Source: a virus. From it: a DNA stretch of 64,000 nucleotides. The notes under the pieces are model-generated. The model was given only the letters and a program-made list of their open reading frames with translations, was not told the DNA's origin and did no database searches. Below are positions 8,372-50,458 of this stretch, one piece after another; positions within the stretch are counted from its first letter, which is position 1; each line of letters starts with the position of its first letter. The stretch lies in the IMG/VR virus record IMGVR_UViG_3300010397_000041, positions 28,426 to 92,425 of that record; one strand, 5' to 3'. The translations under genes were made by a program, and so were the position numbers.

Positions 8372-8785
8372 TCACGTCTTCTTTTTGCGTCGGGTGCTCT
8401 TGCGACGATGAGCGGGCTTCTTGTGGTGAACGCCTTTTCGCCGCGGTTTGTGAGATCCCCTGTGATGGTGTTTCAGCCCGCGTCGCCTGTGTTCGTGAAT
8501 CCCCTTGCGGCGGTGGATCGGATGTTTCAGGTGCCGGTGGCCACCCTTACGGCGATGGACGACCGTCCGGCGGTGCTGGTGGCGTAGGCCACGGCGACGG
8601 GTACCGCGTCGTCTCGATGCCCGTGTCCCTCCGCGGTTCCGCTTCGAGTTTTTGATCTCTTTGCGGACATGGAAGGAGCGGCGGAACGACTTGCCCGGGT
8701 TTCGGTTGCGGGACCGGAAGCCGCGGATATGCAGGCCCTTGCGGGCATGATGTCGGACGACGCGGACCCGGTAGTCGCGGGCCAT
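8372..8785 (-). CDS. Extremely basic protamine-like protein
   Basis: 39 R, 17 K, 20 H and 3 acidic residues in 137 aa; ATG overlaps the upstream TGA. Confidence 0.7.
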   Translation of the reverse strand: MARDYRVRVVRHHARKGLHIRGFRSRNRNPGKSFRRSFHVRKEIKNSKRNRGGTRASRRRGTRRRGLRHQHRRTVVHRRKGGHRHLKHPIHRRKGIHEHRRRGLKHHHRGSHKPRRKGVHHKKPAHRRKSTRRKKKT

Positions 8786-9327
8786 CAGGAGATCACAAGC
8801 TCGGTGGCGGTTGTGACCATGTCGACGCGCACGTAGAACCGGTTGTCCTTCACATCCGGCTCACCTGGGCTGATGTCGATCTCCTCGCCCGCTGTCGAGA
8901 TCGTGTCGAACTTCCGGCCGCCGGTGCCCCATGTCCGGTCCAGCCGGGTGCGGGTGACCAGAGAGTCGAGGAACGTGTCGAAGTCGGCCATCGCGGCCTC
9001 GGTGCGTTGCTGCCGCGAATGAAACTCGATCTCCAGGTAGATCGTGTAGTCGATCTGCTTCTCGCCGCCCGGCGCGATGCCGTCGACACCGCCGCCACCG
9101 AGCGCCCGGCGTCGCTCCTTGGAGTGGACGAGATGCACGGTGCAGACCGCGCCGCTGACCACACCGGAGCCGGGCCAGAAGTCGTCGTCGTTGATCGAAC
9201 GCGGGGGCGCGGTCCACAGGGTGCCCATGAACTGGACGGCGGAGTCGCGGTACATCGTCGGCCGGGTCGGCTGGGCCCGGCCGCCGAACCAGGTGGCGGT
9301 CGCCGCGCGGACGGTGGTGCGGGACAT
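8785..9327 (-). CDS. Tail terminator/head-tail joining protein
   Basis: Position; DFDTFLDSLVTRTRLDRTWG pattern resembling minor tail terminators. Confidence 0.6.
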   Translation of the reverse strand: MSRTTVRAATATWFGGRAQPTRPTMYRDSAVQFMGTLWTAPPRSINDDDFWPGSGVVSGAVCTVHLVHSKERRRALGGGGVDGIAPGGEKQIDYTIYLEIEFHSRQQRTEAAMADFDTFLDSLVTRTRLDRTWGTGGRKFDTISTAGEEIDISPGEPDVKDNRFYVRVDMVTTATELVIS

Positions 9328-9340
9328 GACGCCTCCCGGC

Positions 9341-10495
9341 TCAGATCGCCACGCGGGCGTACCGCTCGAGGATTTCCGCGGCCGCGGCTTCCATGGCCTC
9401 CATGTCCGGGCCGAGGTCCTTGTCGAGCGCGGCCGTGCCGGTGTCCGAGGACTTGCGGACGTAGACGGTCGCTATCTGCCCGACGGCGATCTTGATGTCG
9501 AAGGGGAGCGTGCCTATCCCCGTGCCGGCGCTGTGCGCGTTGACGGTGCCCACGGCGAGCGGCACCGTCCCCGGCCCGACCGCCGGTGTCCAGGTGGAGG
9601 CGACGGTGACCTGCTCCTCGACACCTGGGTCGGTGATGCGCAGCTGCTCACCGGGCTGGATCCCGGTCGTGTCAGCGAGGATCAGACTCGTCACGCCCGC
9701 GGTCGCCGCCGACGTGAGCGCGGAGATCGGGTAGCCGGCGATGTAGTCGAATTCGACGGCGACCGTGCCGCCGGACGGCGGGCCGAACTGGAATCCGCCC
9801 ATCCAGCTGCCCGACGGCGACAACGGGATGATCATCGCCCCGTCTTCGACCCACAGCGCGCCCGGTGTGACCGTGGTCGCCGGCCCGCCGACGGCCGCCG
9901 AGTAGGCGACCCGCGTGCAGGAGATCGGCGGCACATGACCGGAGGTCTGCCGGGGATGTAGCCGTAGGCAGCCGTCGCGGCCGATCCGCGCTGTCTCATG
10001 CTCGGCGAGCACCTGGTGGGCGCCGAGCTGAATGTTGCAGTAGTTGTCCGCCCACCTGCTCGCGCGCAACAAAATGTTCGCGAGCTCGCTGTCGTTCGCG
10101 GCCGCGGACGCGTTGGCGATCAGATCGTCGAAGTTCACACCGGTCGGCATCGCGCGGAACTCGGCGTTGGTCAGGTAGCTACCCGGCCAGCCGAAGATCT
10201 GCCCGGCGTCGCTGCCGACCGACGACGGGAGAACATCGAACTGGCCCTCGTAGGCCGTGTTCGGCAGCGTCGAGACCGCGTGATAGCCGTAGTGCCCGGA
10301 CGCCGGCGGCAGCCAGTCGACGTGGCAGGTGCCGGTAGCGTCGTGACTGACTGCCGGTGTCTGCGTCGTCCCGTCGGGGAGTTTGACAGTGACGACCATC
10401 GTCGCCGGGTCGATCGGCTGCCCGGTCGTCGGATCGGTGACGACGAACGGGCCGAGGCGGACCTCCTGGCCAAACGGGTAGGGCGTCGTCGACAT
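9341..10495 (-). CDS. Head-tail adaptor with N-terminal BppU-like beta domain
   Basis: YLTNAEF...LLRASRWADNYC and LPFDIKIAV...ILERY connector motifs; N-terminal IDPATMVVTVKLPDG domain. Confidence 0.75.
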   Translation of the reverse strand: MSTTPYPFGQEVRLGPFVVTDPTTGQPIDPATMVVTVKLPDGTTQTPAVSHDATGTCHVDWLPPASGHYGYHAVSTLPNTAYEGQFDVLPSSVGSDAGQIFGWPGSYLTNAEFRAMPTGVNFDDLIANASAAANDSELANILLRASRWADNYCNIQLGAHQVLAEHETARIGRDGCLRLHPRQTSGHVPPISCTRVAYSAAVGGPATTVTPGALWVEDGAMIIPLSPSGSWMGGFQFGPPSGGTVAVEFDYIAGYPISALTSAATAGVTSLILADTTGIQPGEQLRITDPGVEEQVTVASTWTPAVGPGTVPLAVGTVNAHSAGTGIGTLPFDIKIAVGQIATVYVRKSSDTGTAALDKDLGPDMEAMEAAAAEILERYARVAI

Positions 10496-10513
10496 CGGCG
10501 CCCCACCCGTCTG

Positions 10514-12712
10514 CTACTGATCCAGTCCGGTCATCGACCCTGCAGGCGAGTCGCCGCCCGTCATCCCGCCCGCCGCCATGTCTCCGCCGGTGACATGCGC
10601 CCACAGCGGATAGACCCGCGGCATGACGAGCTGCTGCCCGCGCCGCCACGGCCGCGACGGCGCGCGCCGCGTGGCGATCACCGGGGGTGGCACCCAGATA
10701 CCGCGCGGTCCCTGCGGCCACGGCGGCTCGGCGAACCTGCCCCTGCGGGGCCGGGCCGCAACCGGCCGCCGCGACGATGGCCGCGGCACCGGGCACGGCG
10801 TTGACCACGTGGGCTCGGCGAACCGACCCCGCCGGGACCGGACCGTGCCCGGTCGCCGCGACGCCATCGGCGACGGCGGCCAGGGGGCCGTCCCGCCGAA
10901 CGGGCCGCCGAGGAACCGTCCGCGGCGGACCGGGCGGACCGCAGGCCGCCGGCTGGTCGTGTTGCCCGGGGGGAACAGCGGACCAGGAGGCGGGATGTCG
11001 AAGACCCGTGCCCGGCGGACTACCCGGACCGCGGGCCGCCGGGACGCCGACGGCGACGATGGGACTGGTGGGATGACCTGCGGTGGAACCGTTTCGGCGA
11101 ACCGTCCCCGGCGGGTGGGCCGGGATGGTGCCCGCCGGGTTGCGGCGACCGCCGGAGGCAGCCACAGACCCTGCAACCCTTGCGGCCAGGGCGGTTCGAA
11201 TGAATGCCCGCGCCGCAGCTTCGGCGCCCACCTTGGCCGGTTGCCCGCCGGCGCGACCGCCGGTGGCAGCCACTTGCCCTGAGTGCCCTGCGGCCACGGC
11301 GGGGAAGCGACCTTGCCTCGGCGAGGCAGCGGGAACCAGCGGGGACGGAACCCGGCCGGGTCCGAGATCCCCGGAAACGGCTGGGTTTGTAGGCCCTGTG
11401 GCCACGGCGGCGACCAGCTGGCCCCACGCCGCAACTTCGGCGCCCACCGCGGGCGGGAGCCAGGCTGGTCGTAGATCCCGGGGTACGGCTGCGACTGGAC
11501 GCCCTGCGGCCAGGGAGGCTGGAAGAACCGGCCGCGTGGCTTCGGCTGCCAGCGGGGTTTCGACCCGGGCTGGCTGGTGAAGCTCGGCCACGCCTGCCCG
11601 GTGTTGCCCTGCGGCCACGGGGGCTCGAACAGCCGGCCTCGGCGGGTCGGCCGGGCAGGAGCCCGCCGCATCGCGATGGTCGCCGGTAGGAACGTGCCGA
11701 TCGGCGCCGGCGGGACCGCGATGATCTGCCCACGCCGGGTCGGACGTGCCGGGGCCCGTCGGGCGGGGATCGACTGGCCGACCAGAGCCGGTGGGGTGAG
11801 CGCCGGCCACGGCGGCTCAAACAGCCGGCCCCGGCGGGGCAGCGGGAACCAGCGTGGATGAGTGCCGGCCTGCCGCGTCTGGTCGGGCAGCCACCCACCG
11901 CGGGTCGCCTGCGGCCACGGCGGCTCGGCGAACCGGCCTCGGCGGGTCGGCCGGGCCGGCTGATGCCGGGCCGTGACCGACGGCGGAGGGAACGGGACCG
12001 GCGGATACCACGGCGGCTCGGCGAACCGGCCGCGGCGGGGACGCGGGAACCAGCGTGGATGGCTGCCCGCCTGGGCGGTGACGGTCGGCCAGCGCTGCCC
12101 AACCGGGCCCTGGGGCCACGGCGGCGACCAGCTGGCCCCGCGGCGGAGCTTCGGCGCCCACCGCGGGCGGGAGCCAGGCTGGTCGTAGATCCCGGGGTAC
12201 GGCTGCGACTGGACGCCCTGCGGCCAGGGCGGATCGAACCGGTGGCCACGGGCGATCCGCGGCGCCCAGCGGGGCCGGTAGCCCGCTGGCTCCGTGAAGC
12301 TCGGCCACGCCTGGCCCCGGGTGGCCTGCGGCCACGGCGGCTCAAAGGTCTTGCCACGTCGCAGCTTCGGAGCCCACCGCGGCCGCGACCCCGACTGGTC
12401 GTAGATCCCCGGGTACGGCTGCGACAGCGGCCCCTGCGGCCACGGCGGGTCGAACGACCTGCCCCGCCGAAGCTTCGGCGCCCACCGCGGCCGCGAACCG
12501 GCCGGCTCGATGAACGACGGCCAGCTCTGCCCGGTGTTGCCCTGCGGCCAGAAGTCGAAGTACCGGCCCCGGCGAGGACGCGGGAACCAGCGGGGACGGC
12601 TACCGGCTTGCTTCGGGTCGGTGGGCCACGCCTGGCCTTGATTGGCCTGGAGGAGGTTGGGCTCGAACCTCTTGCTGCGACGCGGCCAGGCGCCGCGCCA
12701 GCGCCGCAGCAT
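10514..12712 (-). CDS. Arg/Pro/Trp-rich tandem repeat protein (about 20 repeats of 30-36 aa)
   Basis: Recurrent GSRPRWAPKLRRGRxFEPPWPQG unit; fills the operon gap on the coding strand. Confidence 0.7.
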   Translation of the reverse strand: MLRRWRGAWPRRSKRFEPNLLQANQGQAWPTDPKQAGSRPRWFPRPRRGRYFDFWPQGNTGQSWPSFIEPAGSRPRWAPKLRRGRSFDPPWPQGPLSQPYPGIYDQSGSRPRWAPKLRRGKTFEPPWPQATRGQAWPSFTEPAGYRPRWAPRIARGHRFDPPWPQGVQSQPYPGIYDQPGSRPRWAPKLRRGASWSPPWPQGPVGQRWPTVTAQAGSHPRWFPRPRRGRFAEPPWYPPVPFPPPSVTARHQPARPTRRGRFAEPPWPQATRGGWLPDQTRQAGTHPRWFPLPRRGRLFEPPWPALTPPALVGQSIPARRAPARPTRRGQIIAVPPAPIGTFLPATIAMRRAPARPTRRGRLFEPPWPQGNTGQAWPSFTSQPGSKPRWQPKPRGRFFQPPWPQGVQSQPYPGIYDQPGSRPRWAPKLRRGASWSPPWPQGLQTQPFPGISDPAGFRPRWFPLPRRGKVASPPWPQGTQGKWLPPAVAPAGNRPRWAPKLRRGHSFEPPWPQGLQGLWLPPAVAATRRAPSRPTRRGRFAETVPPQVIPPVPSSPSASRRPAVRVVRRARVFDIPPPGPLFPPGNTTSRRPAVRPVRRGRFLGGPFGGTAPWPPSPMASRRPGTVRSRRGRFAEPTWSTPCPVPRPSSRRPVAARPRRGRFAEPPWPQGPRGIWVPPPVIATRRAPSRPWRRGQQLVMPRVYPLWAHVTGGDMAAGGMTGGDSPAGSMTGLDQ
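10600..12640. repeat. Degenerate coding tandem repeats of about 90-108 bp
   Basis: Recurrent GGCCACGGCGG; near-identical ~115-nt copies at about 11400-11514 and 12114-12228. Confidence 0.85.
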
Positions 12713-18055: not shown

Positions 18056-20041
18056 CTATGCGGCGGCGGGCGGGTCCAGCGCGTCGAGCTGCCGCTGAAT
18101 CTCGGCCCGCATCGCCGGGTCGGCGCCGGGGGCGTCACGCATCGCGCGCAGCACGCCCTTCTTCACGTCCGCCTCCGCTGTCTTTGCGAGCTCGGCGGGC
18201 GACACCGGAGGCTGCACTCGCGTCCTGGCAGGGCCGCCCGGCCTCGGCGTCTCGTGCAGCGTGGCCTTCACCTCTGCCAGCCCCTGCGCGAGGGGCTCCA
18301 TGGCCTTCGTGATGGCGTCGCCGAACTGCGCCGCGAGGTCGGCACTCACCCGTGCGGTGATCGCCTTCGTCAGCGTATCGGTGTCGGTGGTGCTGGCCGC
18401 CTTCGCCATGTCAGGCTCGGCGGGGGTCTCGGTGCCGGCCTCGCCGGCGTGGGTCGCGGCCGCGGCCGCGGCCGCCTTCTTCAGGCGCTTCCGCATCTTC
18501 TTCGCGGCCTTTTCGGCGGCAGCCTTCATCAGGTCGGGGGTGCCGGCCTTCTCGGCGCCGTCCTCGGTCGGCTCGGACAGCGCGCCGGCGTCAGGCTCGG
18601 TCATGTGCTTGATCTCCATGGCTTCGTTCCTCATGAACCAGGTCACGAGCTCCGCCGCCTGCGCGAGCAGCGCGATGTCCGCCACCTCGCCGAGCTCGCC
18701 GAGGAACAGGCCCATCGCCTCGGAGCGGATCAGGCACGCCAGGCCCTGGATGACGGCCTTCGCGGCCGCGATGTCGTCCATCTCGGACGCGGCCGCGGCG
18801 TTGTCGGTGAGCTGCAGCCCGCCTTCGTCGCCGTCGTCGGCCTTGACCACGTCGGGCGCCGTAGCCTTCTCCTTCGGCTTGGTGGAGCCGGGCCAGTCGG
18901 CGGGCAGCAGGTCCGTCGCGTCGAGGGCCTTTGCGCGATCGGTGATGTGCTTCTTCGCGGCCGCCGGGTCCTTCGCACGGCCGAACGCCTGGATCGCGTC
19001 GTTGAGCTGGGCCCGGTTCTGGATCGGGAACCCGCCCGACGGCATCGCCTCGCCCGCGGCGGCCGCGTCCTCGCGCTCGCCGGCGGTGAACTTCCGCTTC
19101 TCGAGCTCGGTGGCGACCGCCTTGATCAGCGTGTCGAAGTCGGGCTCGACGGCCTTGCTCGAGGACTTCGCGCTGCCGGTGTCGTCGGCGTCCTCGCTGT
19201 CGGGCTTGCCGTCCCCGTCGTCGTCCTCATCGTCCCGGTTGTGGACACCGTCGCCGTCAGGGTCGGAGCCGCCCTGGCCGCCGTCCTCCGATTGGAAGGG
19301 CTTGGCCTTCCGGCCACCGAACTTGCCGGCCTTCTTCCGCTTCGCCAGCGTCTCCGGATCCGCGGCGTCCGGGTCGTCAGGGTTGGCGACGACGGAGGGG
19401 GCGGTGAGCTGGTCGACCAGGGCGGCGGTCATCGGCAGCACCCGACCATCCGAGGTCTTGAGCAGCATCTGTGGGCCGGGCGCGACAGGGACCGCATCGA
19501 CCGCCTTCTCGACCTCGTCGCCTTCGACGAACTCGGGGCTGTCGACGAGGTCGAGCGAGCCGGTCGCCTTGTTCAGCGCGGCCATGCGAAACAGCGCCGA
19601 CGGCAGCGAGGGCCGGTCGACGGCGCTGACTTCGATCACGTCGCCCCGGCAAACCTTCCCGTTGGGCGCGTCGGTGGCCTTGGCAAGGCCGTAGTTCGCG
19701 ACACCGACCGAGAATCCGGTCAGGATTCCGTGCTCGATCTTCGCTTCGGCGACCGGGTCGACGATCTTCGCCCGCATGTGCCACGAGTGGTCGTCGGTCT
19801 CCCAGACCTCGACCGCCTTACCAATCGGCCGTTGGGCCGAGTGGCCCTCGCGGACATTCCCACCTGACGGCCCGTGCATGTACGCCGGGATCGCGGCCTT
19901 GAGCCACGTCGGGTCCATGCGCTGGCCGTCGGAGTCCAGGTCCGGGCCGGTGAACTTGCCCTCTACCCAGAGGATGCCGGCTTCGTCGCGTTCCTTGCGC
20001 AGGAACGGGGTGTAGATGTCCAGACGCTCAGCAACGGGCAT
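18056..20041 (-). CDS. HK97-family prohead protease fused to scaffold
   Basis: DSDGQRMD, GNVREGH, GILTGFSVG, IEVSAVDRP motifs; long acidic/Ala-Lys C-terminal region. Confidence 0.88.
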   Translation of the reverse strand: MPVAERLDIYTPFLRKERDEAGILWVEGKFTGPDLDSDGQRMDPTWLKAAIPAYMHGPSGGNVREGHSAQRPIGKAVEVWETDDHSWHMRAKIVDPVAEAKIEHGILTGFSVGVANYGLAKATDAPNGKVCRGDVIEVSAVDRPSLPSALFRMAALNKATGSLDLVDSPEFVEGDEVEKAVDAVPVAPGPQMLLKTSDGRVLPMTAALVDQLTAPSVVANPDDPDAADPETLAKRKKAGKFGGRKAKPFQSEDGGQGGSDPDGDGVHNRDDEDDDGDGKPDSEDADDTGSAKSSSKAVEPDFDTLIKAVATELEKRKFTAGEREDAAAAGEAMPSGGFPIQNRAQLNDAIQAFGRAKDPAAAKKHITDRAKALDATDLLPADWPGSTKPKEKATAPDVVKADDGDEGGLQLTDNAAAASEMDDIAAAKAVIQGLACLIRSEAMGLFLGELGEVADIALLAQAAELVTWFMRNEAMEIKHMTEPDAGALSEPTEDGAEKAGTPDLMKAAAEKAAKKMRKRLKKAAAAAAATHAGEAGTETPAEPDMAKAASTTDTDTLTKAITARVSADLAAQFGDAITKAMEPLAQGLAEVKATLHETPRPGGPARTRVQPPVSPAELAKTAEADVKKGVLRAMRDAPGADPAMRAEIQRQLDALDPPAAA

Positions 20042-20099: not shown

Positions 20100-20429
20100 A
20101 TGAGCGACGACAGCCCGCAGTACGAGCCACTCGCGGCCGGCGGCGCAGTGAAAGCGACTGCCTACCTGCCCGACTTCGATCGGTGTGAACTCGCCATCGC
20201 CAACCCGCAGATCAGTGACCGGGGTGTGGTCGATGGCGGCCGGCTCGTAGAGGTCTCGCTACCGAAAGACATCGCGGCGAAGCTGACGCCCGGCCTGCTG
20301 CATGGGCTGTCGGTTGGGCAGACCGCTGATCGGGTCATCCCGCATTGGAACCGCACATCGATGCCGATCGACGCGCCAGCGCTCGGGATGCTGACAGATA
20401 CCGACGAGCCGGAGACGGATCAGCCGTAG
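20100..20429 (+). CDS. Small antisense-oriented protein with permuted prohead-protease-like motifs
   Basis: GGAGA RBS; GGRLVEVSL and AKLTPGLLHGLSVG resemble motifs of the adjacent protease. Confidence 0.6.
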   Translation: MSDDSPQYEPLAAGGAVKATAYLPDFDRCELAIANPQISDRGVVDGGRLVEVSLPKDIAAKLTPGLLHGLSVGQTADRVIPHWNRTSMPIDAPALGMLTDTDEPETDQP

Positions 20430-20686: not shown

Positions 20687-21110
20687 CGGCGCTCTCCTCG
20701 GACTCGGGGGCGTCGAGGCGCATCTGCTTGTCGCGCGCTGCGATCTCCCAGCGGGAGAAGGCGGTATAAACGTCGCGCTCGTCCTTCCACCCGTCCGATG
20801 GGAAGACCATCGCCGGAATCGACGGGTCCCTGCAGAGCACAGCGGCATAGACCCGGTGCTGGCCGTCTATGCCGACCATAGAGCCGCTTTTCCGGACTCC
20901 GACGATCACCCGCTTGGACTGACGGTCGGCCTCGGACAGTTTCATCAGCGCAGCGACCTTGTCAGGGTCGAGTGGGCGCTGGCTGTGGACCCGGTCGAAC
21001 ATGATCAGCTGAGGGTCCAGGTAGACCGGCGACAGCTCGTCGTCGTCGAGGCCCAGGTCGGCGGCGGTGTACGTCGTCGGGTGGTTGTGTTCGCCGTCCT
21101 GGTCAGCCAT
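20670..21110 (-). CDS. ParB/Srx-fold DGQHR-motif protein
   Basis: SQRPLDPDKV...IDGQHRVYAA. Confidence 0.7.
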   Translation of the reverse strand: MADQDGEHNHPTTYTAADLGLDDDELSPVYLDPQLIMFDRVHSQRPLDPDKVAALMKLSEADRQSKRVIVGVRKSGSMVGIDGQHRVYAAVLCRDPSIPAMVFPSDGWKDERDVYTAFSRWEIAARDKQMRLDAPESEESADAGGS

Positions 21111-21483
21111 CGGCGGGCACCGGGTCGCCGAGGAACGTCACCGTGTTGCCGGCCCTGACGGACCGCTGGTCCGCTTCGGGGATGTCCAGCGGTGGCATGT
21201 CCAGCGCAGCGCGCGCCTCGTTGACCGTCATCCGTCCGGTTCCGACCTCGGCCGCGAGTCGGCGGTCCTCGAACTCGTGCCAGGCACGCCACTGGGCGTC
21301 CGACATGGGGACGAGCGAGTAGGCGATCTGGTTCTGATCGTCCGGGTTCGGCAGGGTGACGATCAGGTCGACGGTGACAGCCGTGCGGTTGGGCCACGCG
21401 ATAGTGAGAGTCACCTCGCCGGGGGCGACGGCTATCCCGGTTGGCCGAACCGGCGAGACGCTGATCTCAGGCAGGTCAGACAC
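21103..21483 (-). CDS. Small protein carrying a portal C-terminal-like segment
   Basis: GRMTVNEARAALDMPPLDIPEAD aligns with the window's portal; GGAGG RBS. Confidence 0.7.
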   Translation of the reverse strand: MSDLPEISVSPVRPTGIAVAPGEVTLTIAWPNRTAVTVDLIVTLPNPDDQNQIAYSLVPMSDAQWRAWHEFEDRRLAAEVGTGRMTVNEARAALDMPPLDIPEADQRSVRAGNTVTFLGDPVPADG

Positions 21484-21817
21484 GGGGACCTCCGAAGCCG
21501 GGGCCGTTGCGCAGCCTCTGCCGTTGGATCTCTTGCCACAGCCGCTGGCCGTCGATGTGAACCGGTGTGCCGTCGGGGAGGGAACCGATCGGGGCGCGCC
21601 GCTGGATCGCGTCGACCTTGGCGTGCAGCGCGGCGAGGGCCTGCTCGTGGGCGTCGTGGCGAGCGTGCAGCTCGTCGCGATGCCGGGCGAGGTGTACACG
21701 CATCCGCCAGACGGCGAGGGCGCCGGCGGGGGCCGCCCAGATCGCCGAGGCGATCAGGTTCGACCAGATGCCGCCAGCCGGCCACGCGAAGAACACGTCG
21801 AGAAGATGCACAGGCAT
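21476..21817 (-). CDS. Membrane protein carrying a tape-measure C-terminal-like segment
   Basis: GAGGAG RBS; N-terminal TM; VHIDGQRLWQEIQRQRLRN aligns with the TMP C-terminus. Confidence 0.65.
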   Translation of the reverse strand: MPVHLLDVFFAWPAGGIWSNLIASAIWAAPAGALAVWRMRVHLARHRDELHARHDAHEQALAALHAKVDAIQRRAPIGSLPDGTPVHIDGQRLWQEIQRQRLRNGPGFGGPRV

Positions 21818-21827
21818 CTCCTCACGG

Positions 21828-22103
21828 TCAGAACCTGGCGCCAGGCGGGGCGTCGCTCTCAAGGTCGAACACGGGTGGGGATCCGGTCGGGGTCATGCCC
21901 TTGCTGGCCAGCCAGAGGAACACGGTCGGCTCGTCGTCGAGGGCGAGCGGAACGCGCGGCCCGGTGGCGGTATATCGGACGAGGACGCCGCGGGCAGCTT
22001 CACGGCGAGCGCGGATGGTGACGGGCTCCGGCCAGTCGACAGGGCCGCCGTCCCAGCGCAGCGTGCGATGCCGCCCGTACAACTCCCCCGCCATCTCCCA
22101 CAT
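21828..22103 (-). CDS. Small protein, candidate immunity partner of the MuF extension
   Basis: Starts 4 nt after the MuF stop; function inferred from position only. Confidence 0.5.
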   Translation of the reverse strand: MWEMAGELYGRHRTLRWDGGPVDWPEPVTIRARREAARGVLVRYTATGPRVPLALDDEPTVFLWLASKGMTPTGSPPVFDLESDAPPGARF

Positions 22104-22107
22104 GCCT

Positions 22108-23919
22108 TTACAATACCGCCCAAAGGCCGAGAATGAAATACAGATAATCCTCGTCCTGCGCGAGCATCATCGGGTCATCTGATGATCCGATAAGCATTTC
22201 CGAGCCCATCGACGCGACTTCCCAACCGTCCGAGGGCGAGTCGCTGTAAACCCTGCCGATGTAGGGGTCTTTGAACTCGTCGGGGCGGGACATTTCGTCC
22301 GCGTCGTAGGGTTCAGGTGACAGCGCCCGCATGGACCTTTTACGGCCCAACCGGGTCCACGTTCGGACACCATCGACGAGGTGGCTGTTCCGGTCGGCCC
22401 AGAACACCCATTGGGCGCCGACGATACCTGGCACGGCCCACTCCATCATGTGGGCCAGCTCGTGAACCGCGATCACGTCGCTGTCCATCATCGCAACGAC
22501 GATCTTAGGGGTTTTCCCTTTCGCGCCAGCCGAGAAGTAGGCCCGGCCGCGCTGCTTCATTGCCGCGCGGAGCGGTGCCTTGTCGGAGGCGCGCCGCACC
22601 CAGTCTGACGGAAAATGGCGCAGCATCCGGGAGATCCGTCGCTGTGCCGCTTCGGCCGACGACTCGGTGAAGGCGATCTGGCCGCCCATGGGCCGCAGGT
22701 CACCGAGGACTTGAAGCCGGACGTCGGCCAGACGGCCGGAGATCTGGTCACGGCGCTGCTCGGCGGCTTGCAGGTCGTCCAACGCCCGCTCGTATCGCTG
22801 GCGCAGGTCGTCGACGTGCGCCTGATCGGGCGTCGCCTCAGCGGCGGCCTGCTCGAGCTGGTCGCCGAGACGTTCGGCGTCGGCTTCCAGTGCCGCGATC
22901 CGCTGGGCCAGCGCTTCCTGTTCGGCGAGCTGCACCGCCAGTCTCTGCCGCGCTTCCTGTTCGATCTGCTTTCCGACGTCGCGCAGGACGTTGACCTTCG
23001 CGATCGACGCTTGGTCGGGTAGCCCCTGGGTGTCGGCGTCGTACACCGGTTTGCCGTCTTGGAGGATCGTGCCGATCCGCTCCGGGTCGCCGATCTCGCT
23101 TCGGGCGTTGTTCACAGCGTCCTGGAGCCGCCCTGTCGACCTGTGGGGGGTCGGCGACGCGGCTGGGCGGGGGCTGTCGACGGCGTCGGGTGGCATGCTG
23201 GCATGCCGCGGCGTCGGCTCGTCCGCCAGGCCCGTCTCGTCGTCGGCCGTCTCGTCGTCGGACTCTGCGCCGGCGTCGTCCTCGGCGATGTCGTCGTCTT
23301 CGAGATCGTCGGCGGCGTCCAACTCGCCGCCGGCTTCGCCGTCCAGGCCGAAGTCGGACAGGCTGTAGCCCATCGAGGTCAGATCCGCCGGGGTCAGGTA
23401 ATCCGCCGTTACTGCGCACCGGCATTTCGGATGGGTCGGCGGCCAGCCATTAGGTGGTTCATCGTTCACGGGGATCGGCCCGGCGTCCTCGTTCTCCTGG
23501 CAAAGAGCACACACGCGAAGATCGTTGGAGCTGAGCACCGAGGCGGCGGGGAATCCTGCATCCCGGTAGGACGCGAGACTGGCCGCCGTCATCGCCCGGG
23601 CCATCTCAGTGGTGGCAACCATCTCCGCCCACGCCGGGTCGTCCAAAACTCCTTGCAGCGTGCGGGCAAGCTCGTCAGACGAAGCGCCGCGGGCAACAGC
23701 GTCCGACACAGCGCCTGACAGCTTGTCGAGCCGGTTGTCTTCGATCGAGGCGAGCAGGCTCCCGCGTTGCGCGGCCCGGTCGGACCAGGAGGCGTCGCGG
23801 CCTACGGCCTGGGCGATGAGCTGGTCCTGCTGGCGGGCGAGACGTGCGGCTGGCTCGTGGCCCGGCGTCCAGCTGTCCCAGTCGATCGAGGACTCGACGA
23901 TGGGCGCGGCCACGGTCAC
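22108..23919 (-). CDS. MuF (SPP1 gp7-like) minor head protein with C-terminal HEXXH domain
   Basis: MVATTEMARA, RVCALC, PPTHPKCRC MuF motifs; VHELAH...EVASMG in the extension. Confidence 0.82.
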   Translation of the reverse strand: MTVAAPIVESSIDWDSWTPGHEPAARLARQQDQLIAQAVGRDASWSDRAAQRGSLLASIEDNRLDKLSGAVSDAVARGASSDELARTLQGVLDDPAWAEMVATTEMARAMTAASLASYRDAGFPAASVLSSNDLRVCALCQENEDAGPIPVNDEPPNGWPPTHPKCRCAVTADYLTPADLTSMGYSLSDFGLDGEAGGELDAADDLEDDDIAEDDAGAESDDETADDETGLADEPTPRHASMPPDAVDSPRPAASPTPHRSTGRLQDAVNNARSEIGDPERIGTILQDGKPVYDADTQGLPDQASIAKVNVLRDVGKQIEQEARQRLAVQLAEQEALAQRIAALEADAERLGDQLEQAAAEATPDQAHVDDLRQRYERALDDLQAAEQRRDQISGRLADVRLQVLGDLRPMGGQIAFTESSAEAAQRRISRMLRHFPSDWVRRASDKAPLRAAMKQRGRAYFSAGAKGKTPKIVVAMMDSDVIAVHELAHMMEWAVPGIVGAQWVFWADRNSHLVDGVRTWTRLGRKRSMRALSPEPYDADEMSRPDEFKDPYIGRVYSDSPSDGWEVASMGSEMLIGSSDDPMMLAQDEDYLYFILGLWAVL

Positions 23920-24511: not shown

Positions 24512-25045
24512 TTAGAAGATGCTGCGGCCGCCGCGTGGCGCGCCGGGCGCTTCTCTCATCAGCTGGTCGAGGCCGCGTCGCTCCCGGTGCCGTTTCCGGT
24601 GCTGCCGATCGTCCTGGCCGCCCGGCGTCGCTGCCTTGACCGCCGGTGCCGGCTGGTGGTGCAGCCTCGGCGGATCGAGCGGCACAGGCTTCGGCGCGGC
24701 TTTGGCCTGCGCTCGCCGCACTGCGTCGTCGGCCGCCAGTTCCCCGGCCGCCCAGCCGGCCCGGTAGCAGTCCCTCAGAGCCGGGCCCAACGCGCCTTTG
24801 CGGGCGTGTTGGTCGAGGATCAGCCGGATCTCGTGCCGCAGGATCTGCGGGTCGGTGGTCGTCCCGCCGGGCCAGCGGGCCGCGAGGACGCGGGCGACGG
24901 CTTCCGGGTCAATAAGTCGGCTGGCAGCCTGGGATACCCGCTCGGCGTAGCGCGGGTTCAGCGCGTCGTGCGCCTGGAAGCCGATCCACTGCGCCCGCTC
25001 CCTGGTCAGGTCGCGGGCTTGCGGCTCGCCCCCCGCCACCACCAC
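24512..25045 (-). CDS. MuF N-terminal-like region overlapping the portal end; possibly a frameshifted portal extension
   Basis: ALRDCYRAGWAAGELAA helix typical of MuF N-termini; no clear RBS; +1 frame relative to portal at a G6 run. Confidence 0.5.
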   Translation of the reverse strand: MVVAGGEPQARDLTRERAQWIGFQAHDALNPRYAERVSQAASRLIDPEAVARVLAARWPGGTTTDPQILRHEIRLILDQHARKGALGPALRDCYRAGWAAGELAADDAVRRAQAKAAPKPVPLDPPRLHHQPAPAVKAATPGGQDDRQHRKRHRERRGLDQLMREAPGAPRGGRSIF

Positions 25046-27218
25046 CAGCCTTCGCCAGCTCGGCTACGGCCGCTTTGGCTCTCAGGGCGGCGAGCCCCGG
25101 CTGGTTGTCCTGCACCATGACGTTCAGTTCGCGGGCCAGCTGCTCCGGCACTGCAGTGAACGTGAACGCGCGGGACCTGCCACCCGACTTCTCCAACCGG
25201 GTTGCGTAGCGGGCGAACGCACCCAGCTCGGCCGCGACCGCCTTCGCCTCGTCCTTCGGACGGTGCGGAAAGCCATCCTCGGCCAGCCCGTAGGCCAGAC
25301 AGCCCGGCTCGCCGTCCGTGGGGACGAACCGGTGCTGGATGTCCTGGGCGTCGCCGGCGGTGCCGTCGATGCCCTGCGCCTGGCGGGCCGCCTCGCCAGC
25401 CTCCTGGAAGGCCTGCGTGGTGGCGGTCTTGGCTACGGCCGTCTTCTGGCCCGAGCCGTCCGAGGCGGACGCCGGCTTGGGCGGCGCAGCTTCCTCGCCG
25501 GCGTCGGAATCGTCGCCGGAGTCGTCGTCGGATTCTTCGGACTCGTCGGCCTGCTTCCCGCGGGCCGGTCGCTGCGCGGGCGCGGCTTGGAAACCCGCGA
25601 CGGCGGCCTGCGAGCCGGCCCTCGCCGCGGCCCCCTGCGCCTCCTGGATCGCCTTCTGGCCGTCGAGGAACAGGACGCCGCGGCCGTAGGCGACGAACGG
25701 CTCGTCGGCTTCTTCGATCGGCAGCGGCGGCAGGCCCATCTCGTCGCGGGCCTCGTTCAGCGTCCGCCGGCCGCCTTTGACCTGCGTGTCCAGCACCGCA
25801 TCGGCCGATGCCTGGTCTTCTTCCTCGAGGCCGAGGAATTTGAACTCGACGGCGGGGTGGACACCGAGGTAGCGGTGGTTGATGTCGTTGAAGATCGCGG
25901 CGAGCCATTTGCACCACGGGTGGATCAGCTTGCGGTACTGGATGTTCTCCTGGCCCTCGTGGTAGCTGCTGCCCCCCAGGCCGCCGGACTCGATGAAGCC
26001 GATCTCCGCCGGGGTGACACCGAACGCGGCGGCGATCAGCTTGACCAGGAACAGGTCGTACTCGGGCTTGTACTTCTGCGCGTTGTCCGTGAAGGTTGCC
26101 AGCTTGCCGCCGGGCAGGCCGATCTGGATCCGCTGCCGTTCGGAAAGGTTCCCCGACAGCGTGTTGTTGATCTCGGCGCGCCAGCGGCGGACCTCGGCCG
26201 GGGTCATACCCTTCGCCGACTCAGGGACCTCGAGGAACGCCATCGGCAGCGACGAGGCGTCGAACTCCTGGGTCAGCCAGTCGGCGCGTTTCAACCACAG
26301 GTTGATCTCGATCAAGGCTTTTTCGACGGGGCTGATGCCGTAGGGCGAGATGGTACGGACCTCGCGGCGGCAGTAAATCAGCTCGTCGGCGGTCAGCCCG
26401 CCGTCGATCGTGCCGTCCTTCCCGATCGCCGCGGTGAACTCGCCACGAGGGAAGCCGTACATGATCTGCTGGAACGCGGGATCGGGCGGCAACGGCCGCC
26501 GGCCGCGGTTGTCCAGAAGCGGCTTCACGAACTCGCCTGCGATGATCTCGCAGGCCAGGTCGTTGCCGTACGACCAGCGCGGATTGATCGCCAGCGCGTC
26601 GAGGACCAACGACTCTTCGAGCGCCATCCCGAGCCAGTCGACGAAGTTGTAGCCGCCGAACCGGTCGGGCCGCTTCCAGAACGCACGCGCCTTCGCGATG
26701 TCCGGTGCGAGCTTCTCCCGCAGCGCCGACTTCGCCTGGACCTTGCGGATCCCGTCGAGTTCCATCGCGGTGGTGACGGCATCCTCGGACACGGTGGTCG
26801 CCCAGTCGAGCCCGCAGATCTCCGATTTGATCAGGGAGATGCAGTAGCGGACGATCCCGACGTCGGCTGCCTTCCGCAGCGTCTCGAACGGCACATGCCG
26901 CCGTTCACCGCCGGGGACGTTCCAGCCGACCGGATATTCCCAAACCCTGGGGTCCGTGCGGCCGTCGGGGCGAAGCGGGTCGATCGCGTACGGCCCGGGC
27001 GGGGTGAGCGGGCCGAACGGAGCCGTGTAAGGAAGTTCGCGGGGCAGCGGCTCGTAGGCGCCGATCGCCACACCCGACTGCACCGCGCCCGCCGCGGCCG
27101 CGGCCGCCTGCGCGGACATGTCCCGGGTCTGACCGCCGGCGGCACGGGCCGCCGCCGCGTACGACGCCTTGTCGAGCTGGCGGCGCTTACGGTTGCGGGC
27201 ACGGCTGCGAGACGACAC
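24909..27218 (-). CDS. Portal protein
   Basis: Follows terminase; YGISPVE, AAAFGVTPAEIG, TLNEAR..MGLPPL motifs; GAGG RBS before GTG. Confidence 0.92.
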   Translation of the reverse strand: MSSRSRARNRKRRQLDKASYAAAARAAGGQTRDMSAQAAAAAAGAVQSGVAIGAYEPLPRELPYTAPFGPLTPPGPYAIDPLRPDGRTDPRVWEYPVGWNVPGGERRHVPFETLRKAADVGIVRYCISLIKSEICGLDWATTVSEDAVTTAMELDGIRKVQAKSALREKLAPDIAKARAFWKRPDRFGGYNFVDWLGMALEESLVLDALAINPRWSYGNDLACEIIAGEFVKPLLDNRGRRPLPPDPAFQQIMYGFPRGEFTAAIGKDGTIDGGLTADELIYCRREVRTISPYGISPVEKALIEINLWLKRADWLTQEFDASSLPMAFLEVPESAKGMTPAEVRRWRAEINNTLSGNLSERQRIQIGLPGGKLATFTDNAQKYKPEYDLFLVKLIAAAFGVTPAEIGFIESGGLGGSSYHEGQENIQYRKLIHPWCKWLAAIFNDINHRYLGVHPAVEFKFLGLEEEDQASADAVLDTQVKGGRRTLNEARDEMGLPPLPIEEADEPFVAYGRGVLFLDGQKAIQEAQGAAARAGSQAAVAGFQAAPAQRPARGKQADESEESDDDSGDDSDAGEEAAPPKPASASDGSGQKTAVAKTATTQAFQEAGEAARQAQGIDGTAGDAQDIQHRFVPTDGEPGCLAYGLAEDGFPHRPKDEAKAVAAELGAFARYATRLEKSGGRSRAFTFTAVPEQLARELNVMVQDNQPGLAALRAKAAVAELAKAGGGGGGRAASPRPDQGAGAVDRLPGARRAEPALRRAGIPGCQPTY

Positions 27219-27240
27219 GGGGCCACCTCGCGCGCCTTGG

Positions 27241-27438
27241 TTAGTCGTGCCGCGGACAGCCGCCCATGACCACCAGGCCGTAGGTCGGATGCCAGTGGCA
27301 GCCGCATCCCAGGCCGCGGCGAAGCCACACGTGGGCGATGAACAGGAAGCGCCGCGGGCCGGGCCTGTACCCGGCCTCACGCCAGAGGGGACGCATGAAC
27401 CGGACGTAGCCGATCAAAGTCACAGGGTCCGCCTCCAA
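27241..27438 (-). CDS. Hypothetical small protein
   Basis: Fills the terminase-portal gap; Cys/His-rich end. Confidence 0.4.
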   Translation of the reverse strand: MEADPVTLIGYVRFMRPLWREAGYRPGPRRFLFIAHVWLRRGLGCGCHWHPTYGLVVMGGCPRHD

Positions 27439-29054
27439 CCCTGCGCGGATTCGCCCCCGCCGAACCAGGCCGACATGTCGACCGCCGCAGGCTCCCGCGC
27501 TTCGGGCGGCGGCTGCTGGTGCGCGTTGGCGTCGGATTCGGCGATCAGCTGGTCCATGAAGCTGGCGAAATCACCCCGCAGATCCACGAAGGCGAGGATG
27601 AGCGCGTCGGCGTTGTCGGGCGACCGGCCGAGCCGCTCCCGTTGATCGTCCTTCGGCTCGACCTGGATCTGCCCGCGGCTGTTCGGATGCCACTTCGCGG
27701 TCAGCAGCTGATTGCAGGCGTCGTCAGGATTCTCCGCGCCCGACTGCCACACACCGTCAGCGTTGTAGACGGCCGGGGAGAGGTCCCACGCCTGCTGCTC
27801 GGACTGGAGCCGGCCAACCTCCCACCAGATCTCCGACCGCAGGTTCGCGAACCGCTTCGAGTCGGTTGCCTGCTGGCCGACGTTCACCCCGGTCACCGTC
27901 GCCGTGTGGGTGCCGTCGCCGCGGAGCTCCTTCAGCCGGTCGGCTACGCCGGCGCCGATACCGATGCTGTCGACGTTGACGGCCGTCGCCCCGGTGATCT
28001 CAATCGCTTTGAGGACCAGGCGGACGACGGACATGGTGTCGTCGTCGCGGTCCCGCCACTCCCGGCCGACCATCCGGCCGCGCCGCTCCCGGATCACAGT
28101 CTCATCGCCGCCGCCACCGACGTCGACACCGAGGACAACCGGGGTGAGCTCGTCCGGGGTGTACTCGCGGTCGGTGGGCTGCCGGCACTTCGCCAGGTCA
28201 GAGGAGCGCACGACCTGATCGGAGGCGTCCAGCGGGAACTCGCCGAGAACCTTCTCGAACCAGAGCGGAGAGCCCTCACCCCAGTCGGCGCGCTTCTCCT
28301 CCACCCACGTCTTCGAGACCAGCGCGCGGCGCAGCAGATCCGGGACCCGTTCGCCGGTCAGGTTCGGCGTGTCGAACGCGGAGATGGTGATGACGTGCCA
28401 GCCCGAACCGGGACGGCAGACCTGCGCGAATTCGCTGGAAGGGTCGGCAGGGTTGCCGATCGCCAACAGGGCGCAGCCCTCGTTGGTCATGAGCGCGTCG
28501 GCGGCGGTCCACAGCCAGCCGGGGATCCCGCTCGCCTCGTCCAACGCAACCAGAACGCCGTCGGGGGCGTGGATGCCCTGAAAGGCGGTGCGGCCCTGCT
28601 CCGTGTCGGGCGGTTTCCGGCCGAAGCCGATCAGCTCTTTGCCGAGCTTCCACTCCGTGGTGAGCACCCGGCCGGGTAGGGGCGTGCCACGTTCCGCGGC
28701 GACCGCCGCGGCCTGGCCGATGTAGCGCCACAGGATCGCCTGGACCTGGGCAGCCGACGGCGCGGTCGTGACCGCGAACGCCTGACCGGGAGTCCGGGTC
28801 GCAAGCCAGTGGGCCACGACCCGAGAGGCAGTGTGGGACTTTCCGCAGCCGTGTGCCGACTTGACCGCGACCTTACGGTGCCTGGTCAGCGCGGTGACGA
28901 TCTCAACCTGCTTGGACCACAGATGCTCGCCGAGCACGTCCGACACCCACAGCGCGGGGTCGGTGCGGTACTGCTGCTGGCGGGCCTCGCTGTCGAGCCG
29001 GTCGAGAGCGGCGAGCAGGTTGGATGACAGCCGGTCGGGCAGCGCTACCACCAT
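27420..29054 (-). CDS. terL: Terminase large subunit
   Basis: Walker A SAHGCGKS, Walker B VALDEA, IGNP, nuclease LGVDVG, SPDNADAL. Confidence 0.96.
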   Translation of the reverse strand: MVVALPDRLSSNLLAALDRLDSEARQQQYRTDPALWVSDVLGEHLWSKQVEIVTALTRHRKVAVKSAHGCGKSHTASRVVAHWLATRTPGQAFAVTTAPSAAQVQAILWRYIGQAAAVAAERGTPLPGRVLTTEWKLGKELIGFGRKPPDTEQGRTAFQGIHAPDGVLVALDEASGIPGWLWTAADALMTNEGCALLAIGNPADPSSEFAQVCRPGSGWHVITISAFDTPNLTGERVPDLLRRALVSKTWVEEKRADWGEGSPLWFEKVLGEFPLDASDQVVRSSDLAKCRQPTDREYTPDELTPVVLGVDVGGGGDETVIRERRGRMVGREWRDRDDDTMSVVRLVLKAIEITGATAVNVDSIGIGAGVADRLKELRGDGTHTATVTGVNVGQQATDSKRFANLRSEIWWEVGRLQSEQQAWDLSPAVYNADGVWQSGAENPDDACNQLLTAKWHPNSRGQIQVEPKDDQRERLGRSPDNADALILAFVDLRGDFASFMDQLIAESDANAHQQPPPEAREPAAVDMSAWFGGGESAQGWRRTL

Positions 29055-33180: not shown

Positions 33181-33281
33181 CGCTGCCACCGGTCCCGCTC
33201 GAAGTAGACGCCGAGGGTGAAGCCGAGCAGACCGGAGGCGAGGGCGGCCAGCACGATGATCAGGATGGTGCTCGCGGTCAT
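33177..33281 (-). CDS. 34-aa membrane peptide (MTASTILIIVLAALASGLLGFTLGVYFERDRWQR)
   Basis: Translated by hand; ATGA and GTGA couplings on both sides. Confidence 0.55.
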   Translation of the reverse strand: MTASTILIIVLAALASGLLGFTLGVYFERDRWQR

Positions 33282-33730
33282 GATGTTGACTCCGCTGCGA
33301 GCAGGAACCGCATCGCCTCGTCGCGGCGGAACCCTGCCTGCAGGTGCGCGGCGAGCGTCTCGTACCGGGCCCTCGCAACCGGGTCAGGAGGCAGGGCTGT
33401 CGGCCCGGTGACGACCGCCGTGGCTGACGGCAGCCAGTTGCACGTCAGGATCGGCACACCCCGGCCGGTAAGCGGATGGGCCACCGTCTCGATAAATGCG
33501 GGCTTGTTCAAAGCATCGTCGTAAGTCCGAGGCGGCCGGACCGCGACGGCAAGCACCGTTTGCGCCGTCGACGACATGTAGATCCCGGCCGGTTCGCCAC
33601 CCCAGTCCCGGACAATCGTTTCCAGGGCGTCGAACAGCCGGTCTGGTGCTGCGACCCTACTGACGTCGATTTGGCGGAGTTCGCCGGTCTCGCCGTCGGC
33701 CCAGTAGATGTGGGTCAGGTCGCCGGTCAT
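33278..33730 (-). CDS. Small protein resembling the C-terminal (A-domain) part of the major capsid protein
   Basis: EPAGIYMS and LTGRGVPILTCNWLPSATAVV align with the window's capsid; GGAGG RBS, ATGA coupling. Confidence 0.65.
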   Translation of the reverse strand: MTGDLTHIYWADGETGELRQIDVSRVAAPDRLFDALETIVRDWGGEPAGIYMSSTAQTVLAVAVRPPRTYDDALNKPAFIETVAHPLTGRGVPILTCNWLPSATAVVTGPTALPPDPVARARYETLAAHLQAGFRRDEAMRFLLAAESTS

Positions 33731-39167: not shown

Positions 39168-39387
39168 GGTGTCCTCGCGGGGGTGGGCCGTACGGGGATT
39201 GCCAGCGGGGCCGGTCCGCCGGCCGGGTGAGCGCCTCTGCGAGTGCGTCCCACGCGGCGACCTGGGCGAGCAGCGCCTCAGCTATCCGCCCGAAGGCCTC
39301 GACGAGGGCCGGTGCGGTCTCGGTGAGCTTCTGCCAGGCGGCGGCGGGCGTTCCCAGGTCGAACGACGCCGGCTCGTCGTCGGTCAT
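38995..39387 (-). CDS. Hypothetical protein (RPRWQSPYGP motif); 3' end overlaps the next gene
   Basis: ATGA coupling at the start. Confidence 0.45.
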   Translation of the reverse strand: MTDDEPASFDLGTPAAAWQKLTETAPALVEAFGRIAEALLAQVAAWDALAEALTRPADRPRWQSPYGPPPRGHRDQYEAAAATRQHQHRVPMHQRPVRRLHRGRPGRGRRQLPALRHIRRRARVGPRHGR

Positions 39388-39653
39388 GGGTCGACCAGGC
39401 CGGGTGTCCGGTCGGCGGGGGGCAGGTAGTTGACGAACGGCCCGGGTGAGGTCGGTGCGGGGTCGATGGAGTCGGCCCAGCCGTCGCCGTCCTGGTCGGG
39501 CTGGCACGCTGCCGACGTGGCGGTGGCCACGACGACCTGGCCGGCGGGGCAGTCGACGGGCCACGGTGTCGGGACGAATCCGCTGAGGGCGAGGGCGACA
39601 CCGCCGCCGGCGGCGGCCAGGCCGACGATGGTGATCAGGTTGCGGATGTTCAC
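39384..39653 (-). CDS. Membrane/secreted protein with a DxDGDG Ca-binding-like repeat
   Basis: N-terminal hydrophobic helix; DQDGDGWADSID. Confidence 0.55.
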   Translation of the reverse strand: MNIRNLITIVGLAAAGGGVALALSGFVPTPWPVDCPAGQVVVATATSAACQPDQDGDGWADSIDPAPTSPGPFVNYLPPADRTPGLVDP

Positions 39654-39657
39654 CGGG

Positions 39658-40005
39658 TCACCGGGTCAGCTCGAGGATGGTGATGCCGGCGGCGAGGCCT
39701 CCGATGGCGGCGAGTGCGATCAGGCCGAGGGCTGCCGCGAGCCGGCGGCGCCACCCGGGCCGTGGCGTGCCGGTTGGGGCTTCGGTGTCGGGTTCGCCGC
39801 GCTGTCTGGTGATCGTATCGGCGGCGAGGTGCGCGAGTTCGACCGTCGACCCGTCGTCTGCGGCTGGCCATAGCGACGCGAGAACAGCCCGGACCTGGTC
39901 GAGTTCGGCGCGGGTCTGGTCGTGGCTGGCGCGTTCCGCGATGCGCGCCCGCGTAAGAGCTGTGATCATTTCGAGGGCGCCGTCGATTGGCCGGGCCGTG
40001 GTCAT
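39658..40005 (-). CDS. Coiled-coil protein with C-terminal TM
   Basis: ATGA coupling; hydrophobic C-terminus. Confidence 0.55.
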   Translation of the reverse strand: MTTARPIDGALEMITALTRARIAERASHDQTRAELDQVRAVLASLWPAADDGSTVELAHLAADTITRQRGEPDTEAPTGTPRPGWRRRLAAALGLIALAAIGGLAAGITILELTR

Positions 40006-40376
40006 CGCGGCCCGGTTTCCGCGTCGCCGCCGGCCGGGGCGGCGCAGGACGTGCAGAGGACGACGGGGCGGACGTCGCTGGGCGGGATGCCATCGACGAT
40101 CATCCGGGCCGTCTGGGCTCGGTAGGTGTCGAACGGGACGCTGGCCCCGCAGGCGGAGCAGGTCGCCGCGCAGTGGAGCGGGGCCGCGGCGAGCTGCCGG
40201 GCGAGCTGGGCGACGGATTCGAGCGTCGGGTAGTTGCCTTCGTGGCTGGCGATGAGCGCGGCGTCGCGGGCCTTCTCGCGTCGTTCGAGCTCGTCGACGA
40301 CGGCGGCGGCGAGGTCGGCGATGACGCCCTTGTCGAGGGTCACGACCATGTAGTTCGGGGTTGTGTCGGTGGCCAT
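40002..40376 (-). CDS. Zn-finger hypothetical protein
   Basis: CSAC...CTSC; GGAAAGG RBS. Confidence 0.55.
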   Translation of the reverse strand: MATDTTPNYMVVTLDKGVIADLAAAVVDELERREKARDAALIASHEGNYPTLESVAQLARQLAAAPLHCAATCSACGASVPFDTYRAQTARMIVDGIPPSDVRPVVLCTSCAAPAGGDAETGPR

Positions 40377-40402
40377 GGGTAGGCCCTTTCCATCAGTGGT
40401 GG

Positions 40403-40606
40403 TCAGAGAAGTCCGGTCTGGTGGAGCAGGAGGGCGATGCCGGCGCCGACGGCCAGGCCGAGCGCGGCGGCGCTGGCGAGGTGGGCGCCGAGGACCGCCA
40501 TGCCGTGCCGCCAGGACCGCCGCCCAGGTGCGGGACGGCCGGGCTGGCGGCGGCAGGGGCGTCGGCGGGCGCCGATGCCGATGAGGGTGACCACGAGGGC
40601 GATCAC
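40403..40606 (-). CDS. Small membrane protein
   Basis: Two hydrophobic segments; GTGA coupling. Confidence 0.5.
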   Translation of the reverse strand: MIALVVTLIGIGARRRPCRRQPGRPAPGRRSWRHGMAVLGAHLASAAALGLAVGAGIALLLHQTGLL

Positions 40607-50451: not shown

Positions 50452-50458
50452 CGGACGC

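Follow-up and report, generated by a model that had tools for sequence, protein, structure and literature searches.

A small one-helix membrane protein with a tape-measure-like tail in the head module of a soil siphophage: a candidate lysis regulator

The small gene considered here lies on the reverse strand of a 64,000-nucleotide stretch of phage DNA (the window), which comprises bases 28426-92425 of a 92,425-bp IMG/VR virus record (IMGVR_UViG_3300010397_000041) that has direct terminal repeats and was judged complete. Its product is a membrane protein with a single transmembrane domain (TMD), whose C-terminal tail resembles the end of the tape measure protein (TMP) of the same phage. We read it, tentatively, as a holin-like late membrane protein of the LysF1b type. 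The window has a guanine-plus-cytosine (GC) content of 70%. The sole sequencing run that contains the record is a soil metagenome (DNA), which is probably the source of the phage; no RNA run containing the record is listed. The phage is an uncultured, temperate siphophage of 92 kb from a soil metagenome, and it also encodes a tail tube protein and a DnaB-type helicase. Since the nearest named relative of the N-terminal part of the small protein is a hypothetical protein of Frankia sp. AgW1.1, the host is probably a high-GC actinobacterium.

The small gene stands between a 91-amino-acid (aa) open reading frame (ORF) and a 126-aa gene, downstream of the gene for a MuF-like head protein (Table 1). 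An earlier note on this DNA, made from the letters alone, had taken the ORF for a gene, and a real gene it is: its GC contents at the three codon positions (0.77/0.51/0.85) follow the same pattern as those of the neighbouring genes, a database gene call (P0001) gives the identical 111-aa protein with a GTG start, and orthologs occur at the equivalent position in three related phages (G001, G002 and G003). In all four phages the gene is kept at the same place, after the MuF-like gene and before a ParB-like gene. An overlapping frame of 198 aa has a coding-type GC pattern only downstream of 21475, where the 126-aa gene begins (GTG 21483). Between the two candidate starts, the GTG is probably the one used, because the GGAG of a GAGGAG sequence is spaced 6 nt from the GTG, whereas it leaves no gap before the ATG. 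Both starts and the Shine-Dalgarno sequence are covered by a predicted RNA hairpin, whose 5' foot adjoins the stop codon of the upstream 91-aa ORF. Hairpins of other sequence cover the start in G001 (z -2.6) and G002 (z -2.2), at L001 9975-10030 and L094 1475-1530, which suggests an occlusion relieved by translational coupling. A consensus scan, which is weak for high-GC hosts, found no promoter-like site upstream of the small gene. Given the 10-nt gap, the hairpin over the start and this lack of a promoter-like site, the small gene looks like a translationally coupled member of a late head operon.

A profile search of 1.84 billion representative proteins returned 82 matches at E<1e-3, nearly all of them 50-140 aa long and aligning only to profile positions ~4-75. 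These proteins share the FFxWPxGGxWSNLxAS motif, a hydrophobic segment, WRxRxH and a His-rich helix. No model in Pfam, PHROG or NCBIfam covers them; weak Pfam matches to DUF7310, DUF6779 and DUF5955 were rejected as far below the cut-offs, and the Atlas neighbours DUF2730, DUF2746 and Holin_BhlA, which score 0.78-0.83, are leads only. On the evidence of this profile, the first ~72 residues of the small protein belong to a large family of small membrane proteins from actinophages that lacks annotation. Most members end soon after the helix, and an RRN..G end is found only in P0002, P0005 and P0051. As for the gene neighbourhoods, seen in viral and metagenome contigs, a family member lies directly upstream of a GH25 endolysin at L087/L088/L106, L104 and L105, and directly upstream of an Rv2525c-like glycosidase at L115. 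At L102 it is directly upstream of a gene for an unannotated domain (3219-4019), which has no match in Pfam, NCBIfam or the PDB. This domain sits at the lysin position, and in P0058 its counterpart forms one protein with the module (E 3e-10, 30% identity over 125 aa). Lysin-type adjacency is thereby seen in at least four lineages with a recognised endolysin and in a fifth via the P0058-type domain, and judged from these neighbourhoods the dominant association of the family is with the lysis cassette.

A different arrangement is found at L086 874-1793, where a two-TM (transmembrane) family member overlaps the stop of an ECF (extracytoplasmic function)/sigma-70-like gene (TIGR02937, 9e-18) upstream of terminase and portal genes; this is the classic sigma/anti-sigma layout.

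The membrane helix near the N-terminus, which the earlier note had proposed, is borne out by one hydrophobic segment in the expected place. The coiled coil that was said to follow is a long helix indeed, but rather one that continues the TM segment, since the AlphaFold 2 (AF2) model runs a single helix from residue 17 to residue 74. Over 78 family members, lysine and arginine together occur 13 times in the 15 residues before the TM and 318 times in the 15 residues after it, and four members that carry a further TM at the N-terminus, with basic residues ahead of it, fit the same orientation. The window protein has RMRVHLARHR directly after the TM, and 37% of its residues 38-113 are D, E, K, R or H. 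From this distribution, by the positive-inside rule only, we infer an N-out/C-in topology, in which the basic helix and the TMP-like tail are predicted to be cytoplasmic. Thus, the topology check that the earlier note had called for supports the membrane helix, but it places the tail inside.

The resemblance of the tail to the TMP was reported before as 9 of 19 identical residues, and the count was confirmed between residues 86-104 of the small protein and residues 768-786 of the TMP (window 3110-3166). The TMP-like core consists of an extended V-H-I-D, a G, a 15-residue helix, LRN and a Gly-rich end, while the motif of the TMP itself (strand-helix-RRN..NGL) is encoded at 3071-3166. BLASTP lengthens the match to 10/24; its E is 9e-4 for the single pair and 0.016 when the 21 large proteins of the genome are searched, and each replicate of shuffled small proteins yields 2-3 matches at E<0.05. 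For a broader comparison, 78 TMP loci were collected, their C-termini were extracted, and 12 non-redundant ends with a common motif were made into a hidden Markov model (HMM); the motif is a strand V-x-[IV]-D/N-G, a helix ending in L-R and then RRN-x-x-NGL. The window protein scores 11.3 bits with this HMM (E 0.02 over the 1,446 six-frame ORFs of the genome), and one spurious 39-aa ORF of the window genome ties this score. Judged from the window genome alone, the resemblance is therefore borderline, suggestive but not decisive.

However, the resemblance recurs at the C-terminus of the positional orthologs in the three related phages, and once these are counted it becomes convincing. The ortholog in G001 scores 22.9 bits (per-sequence E 2.4e-9), that in G003 11.9 and that in G002 2.6, and all matches in the small proteins are at the extreme C-terminus and in register. 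As a control, related high-GC phage DNA (~700 kb) was translated in six frames and its 11,344 ORFs were scored; at >=8 bits there are 32 of them, made up of 29 TMP C-termini and 3 small proteins. The G001 ortholog (P0002) is 66% identical to the window protein, and its tail matches the TMP end of its own phage farther, through RRNP; the G002 and G003 tails keep only the helix and RRNG-x-GGL. Conservation of the motif in homologs, on which the earlier note had made its proposal depend, therefore holds in part: it is full in G001 and partial (helix plus RRNG..GL) in G002 and G003, but absent in most of the ~80 wider members. In the AF2 models, the helix on GQRLWQEIQRQRLRN in the small protein (residues 90-104, pLDDT ~80-90) is aligned with the helix on GVTLFRIVQKQALR in the TMP end. 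With 113 aa and no PF10145 match, the small protein is not a TMP, and it is TMP-like in the tail only.

Could the tail resemble the TMP without sharing its function, either by chance or as a generic amphipathic helix with a basic Gly-rich end of the kind seen in many holin tails? The match is short (20-30 aa) and marginal within the window genome, where the spurious ORF ties it; the G002 ortholog scores poorly, and a reverse profile made from the small-protein tails reaches the TMP at only 7 bits. Moreover, a second 1-TMD protein of the window (75-455) likewise ends in a helix followed by RRAN. Nevertheless, we regard this explanation as improbable, for not one ORF other than TMPs and orthologs reaches 8 bits in the control set, which is of similar composition, the G001 ortholog scores well and matches through RRNP, and the matches are in register with both C-termini, with coinciding predicted helices.

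Comparison of the window gene with its G001 ortholog gives a ratio of nonsynonymous to synonymous substitution rates (dN/dS) of 0.19 in the tail, 0.15 in the helix before it and 0.85 over the N-terminus and TM, at a dS of ~0.6-0.9. With this low ratio, the tail is under purifying selection. Co-variation of the small-protein tail with the TMP end of its own phage was looked for across the related phages and none was seen, because the identical TMP ends of G001 and G003 are paired with differing small-protein tails; the family members at L089 and L093 also have tails unlike their own TMP ends. The 3' ends of the small gene and the TMP gene are not alike at the DNA level, and a recent duplication was rejected for that reason. 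A word-based search for other short proteins with a TMP-type end came back empty, and a length-limited search added a single further TMP (P0085). Neither PDB sequence searches nor scans of genome contigs returned any relatives; the PDB was searched with the 791-aa tail protein, P0058, the TMP and the profile of TMP ends. When residues 73-113 of the tail were co-folded with a single copy of the 791-aa tail protein, the score was 0.00 without control runs, which counts neither for nor against binding.

Table 1. Features of the small membrane-protein locus and of related genes in the phage (window coordinates unless G000 is given).
Feature	Coordinates	Strand	Remarks
Small membrane-protein gene	21476..21817	(-)	113 aa from ATG 21817, or 111 aa from GTG 21811; stop TGA 21476-21478
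N-terminal module, residues 1-37	21707..21817	(-)	Short outside segment with FFxWPxGGxWSNLxAS, into predicted TM helix (~residues 17-37)
Basic His-rich helix, residues 38-74 (RMRVHLARHRDELHARHDAHEQ...)	21596..21706	(-)	Predicted cytoplasmic; AF2 pLDDT 93-98
C-terminal tail, residues 75-113	21479..21595	(-)	TMP-like core residues 85-104 (21506-21565)
RNA hairpin over Shine-Dalgarno sequence and both candidate starts	21799..21824	(-)	-19.5 kcal/mol, z -2.35
Upstream 91-aa ORF	21828..22103	(-)	Stop 10 nt before ATG 21817
Downstream 126-aa gene	21103..21483	(-)	GTG start overlaps small-gene stop by 8 nt
MuF-like head protein	22108-23919	(-)	603 aa
Portal	24909-27380		Encoded in the record
Protease/scaffold protein	18056-20041		Encoded in the record
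Tape measure protein (TMP)	3068-5467	(-)	799 aa; PF10145 at 1.9e-18 and TMP PHROGs
Distal-tail-like protein	683-3058	(-)	791 aa; next after TMP
Beta-helix protein	G000 26137-27621		494 aa; separate gene in the window phage
GH25-type lysin	G000 25065-26120		~24 kb from the small membrane-protein gene
Tyrosine integrase	61823-63097		Encoded in the record

One-TMD lysis regulators, LysF1b and LysA2b, have been described from the mycobacteriophages Girr, NormanBulbieJr and D29 (Pollenz et al., PMC13056207; bioRxiv 10.64898/2026.08.27.747656). Proteins of the LysF1b class are 92-150 aa long and N-out/C-in, with basic residues after the TMD and a helical cytoplasmic domain of which 30-50% is DEKRH (PMC13056207). 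They are greatly diverse in sequence, their deletion leads to severe lysis defects and their C-terminal 40 aa are required (PMC13056207; bioRxiv 10.64898/2026.08.27.747656). All the architectural features of the class that were examined, that is, the size, the single N-terminal TMD, the N-out/C-in topology, the basic stretch after the TMD and the charged helical domain, are present in the window protein, which has 111-113 aa, ~17-20 residues predicted to lie outside, a basic cluster after the TMD and a charged helical domain predicted to be cytoplasmic. In D29 the LysA2b gene is found among the tail genes, downstream of the tape measure gene and outside the lysis cassette (bioRxiv 10.64898/2026.08.27.747656); the window gene is outside the lysis cassette as well, and distant relatives of its module stand beside endolysins. 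Class III holins (T4 T) and Mu releasin are also alike in having a single TMD and a role in lysis, but they have the opposite topology or a far larger periplasmic domain, and the LysF1b class was set apart from both by its authors (PMC13056207).

Based on this architecture and on the neighbourhoods of the distant family members, the reading that we favour, while allowing it somewhat less than an even chance, is a holin-like late membrane protein of the LysF1b type, with a conserved cytoplasmic tail that either coincides with a TMP-end module or is derived from one. Such a protein would be made late, its output limited by the start-site hairpin and by coupling to the upstream ORF, and it would act in the membrane on the timing of lysis or on its execution; regulation would fall to the charged tail, as it does in LysF1b-like proteins. 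A TMP-like tail on the architecture of a one-helix lysis regulator is unexpected and is not described for the LysF1b/LysA2b class.

Several observations weigh against a lysis regulator of this type. Unlike LysF1b and LysA2b, the small gene is in the head module in this phage group, not beside the GH25-type lysin, and no 2-TMD partner was identified adjacent to it. No similarity to deposited phage proteins was found, LysF1b and LysA2b included: when the protein, its tail and the TMP end were compared by tblastn with 50,697 deposited phage records, the best matches had E 0.2 (a Pasteurella phage) and E 7. The TM of the window copy is only moderately hydrophobic, with a Kyte-Doolittle value of 1.38 over 19 aa compared with 1.89 in the G001 ortholog; in the orthologs the hydrophobicity is clear. 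In addition, the function of the family may not be uniform, because members also occur in head-tail regions (L089, L091, L093 and L111) and, at L086, directly after an ECF-like sigma factor.

That the C-terminus of a TMP docks in the tail tip, as the earlier note had assumed, is sound for actinophages. In Douge the last 42 TMP residues (1658-1699) form a trimer in the lumen of the distal-tail/baseplate-hub complex (DTP-BHP), where ~3,564 square angstroms are buried, for the most part on the hub (PMC13033339). The Douge TMP itself gives no sequence match to our TMP-end profile. The TMP ends and the small-protein tails have in common a V-x-[IV]-D-G strand, a ~14-residue helix to L-R and RRN with a Gly end, and they are recognised by the same profile. 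Unlike a TMP end, however, the tail is carried by a membrane protein of 113 aa instead of a TMP of ~800 aa, is 40-50% identical to the TMP end of its own phage and, in the window copy, lacks the RRR of RRRN. It is doubtful, though conceivable on this likeness, that the tail is a working copy of the hub-docking element, binding hubs (its own or those of a co-infecting relative) or the TMP trimer. Such binding would tie the lysis clock to tail assembly, or would hold the tail initiators of a competitor at the membrane.

One specific form of this idea is a coupling of assembly to lysis, in which the tail would bind the phage's own hub or TMP trimer at the site of the TMP C-terminus, so that activity follows the free hubs or the hubs are held at the membrane. 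As inferred from the operon, the tail, the hub and the TMP would all be late and in the same compartment; the tail is under purifying selection and is TMP-specific, and the C-terminal 40 aa are needed in LysF1b-like proteins. We still consider such coupling distinctly unlikely. It has no known precedent, the tails in G002 and G003 are poorly conserved beyond the helix and RRNG..GL, rivalry with the phage's own TMP would be costly, and no hub protein was recognised, the only tail candidates after the TMP being the 791-aa distal-tail-like protein and the beta-helix protein.

Alternatively, as the earlier note had inferred, a membrane-tethered mimic of the TMP end might block related phages by capturing their tail-tip hubs or by disturbing the TMP conduit (superinfection exclusion). 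HK97 gp15, a superinfection exclusion protein, is encoded among structural genes. Some exclusion proteins of the inner membrane do target conduit proteins, for example SieA of P22, escape from which maps to the C-terminal regions of ejection proteins (PMC10883804). The small protein is comparable with both in being a small inner-membrane protein (by prediction) of a temperate phage with a link to a DNA-conduit protein, its tail being specifically like the TMP segment that docks in the Douge hub, and the presence of the integrase also fits. Proximity labelling with TurboID-ManZ shows that the lambda TMP can be reached from the cytoplasmic side while injection is under way (PMC13190303); a cytoplasmic tail could thus meet an incoming TMP and might, even from there, affect entry. 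However, SieA and gp15 are prophage-expressed accessory genes, whereas the window gene appears late-coupled, is syntenic and has no homology to them. It appears tightly coupled within the late head operon, a hairpin covers its start and the consensus scan gave no promoter-like site; it does not look like a moron, keeping its place in four phages; no co-variation links the small-protein tails to the TMP ends, and the wider family is lysis-associated. We therefore give exclusion of this kind little credence. In particular, a trap for tail tips that arrive from outside is unlikely, because the tail is predicted to be on the cytoplasmic side.

Apart from the small gene, the head module of the window phage has some particular features. 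The 126-aa gene contains a 46-aa segment that is 48% identical (22/46) to portal residues 527-572 (BLASTP, E 2.3e-7); it also matches the portal phrog_2662 at 3e-4, and the remainder of the protein is without a match. If the TMP-like tail is a working copy, the small gene would, together with this neighbour, belong to late genes made from pieces of virion proteins. Both the 91-aa and the 126-aa genes are absent in G001-G003, in which the small gene directly follows the MuF-like gene, and hence the set of small putative virion-mimic genes is, as far as these genomes tell, not conserved, unlike the membrane protein. The MuF-like protein of the window phage has a HELAH-containing C-terminal extension, while the versions in G001-G003 are ~261-275 aa long and without it; since the extension and the 91-aa ORF are both missing there, the two look like an inserted module. 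Two further candidate mimics, a protease-like ORF (20100-20429, (+)) and a capsid-like ORF (33278-33730, (-)), found little or no support in an all-against-all BLAST: the best match of the former is not the protease but a 544-aa protein at 27420-29054 (E 0.003), and the latter matches a capsid-region protein at only E 0.034.

Following the TMP, the gene order is the 791-aa distal-tail-like protein, two 1-TMD proteins, the beta-helix protein and the GH25-type lysin. The 791-aa protein corresponds, at 61-62% identity, to the C-terminal part of longer open frames (~1,476 aa) in the three relatives (matching parts at G001 39226-41601, G002 8615-10975 and G003 48650-51025), and the start of the G001 frame, directly after the TMP, resembles a right-handed beta-helix (by eye only). 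The second 1-TMD protein mentioned above (75-455, (-)) is encoded between the tail genes and the lysin. Its juxtamembrane helix resembles that of the small protein, it ends in a helix and RRAN/RRAG, and counterparts in G002 and G003 (L096 1366-1782; L097 1342-1758) give weak profile matches of ~11 bits (E ~0.03). It may be a paralogous or partner membrane protein of the lysis region.

Lysis control by one-helix N-out/C-in regulators has only just been shown in mycobacteriophages. The FFxWPxGGxWSN module defines, by its profile, a large unannotated actinophage family that is tied to endolysin neighbourhoods, and it should be useful for annotation. As for the tail, if it binds the hub or the TMP, this would be a physical link between virion assembly and the timing of lysis, or a new kind of intracellular interference between phages, and it would offer a defined peptide as well.

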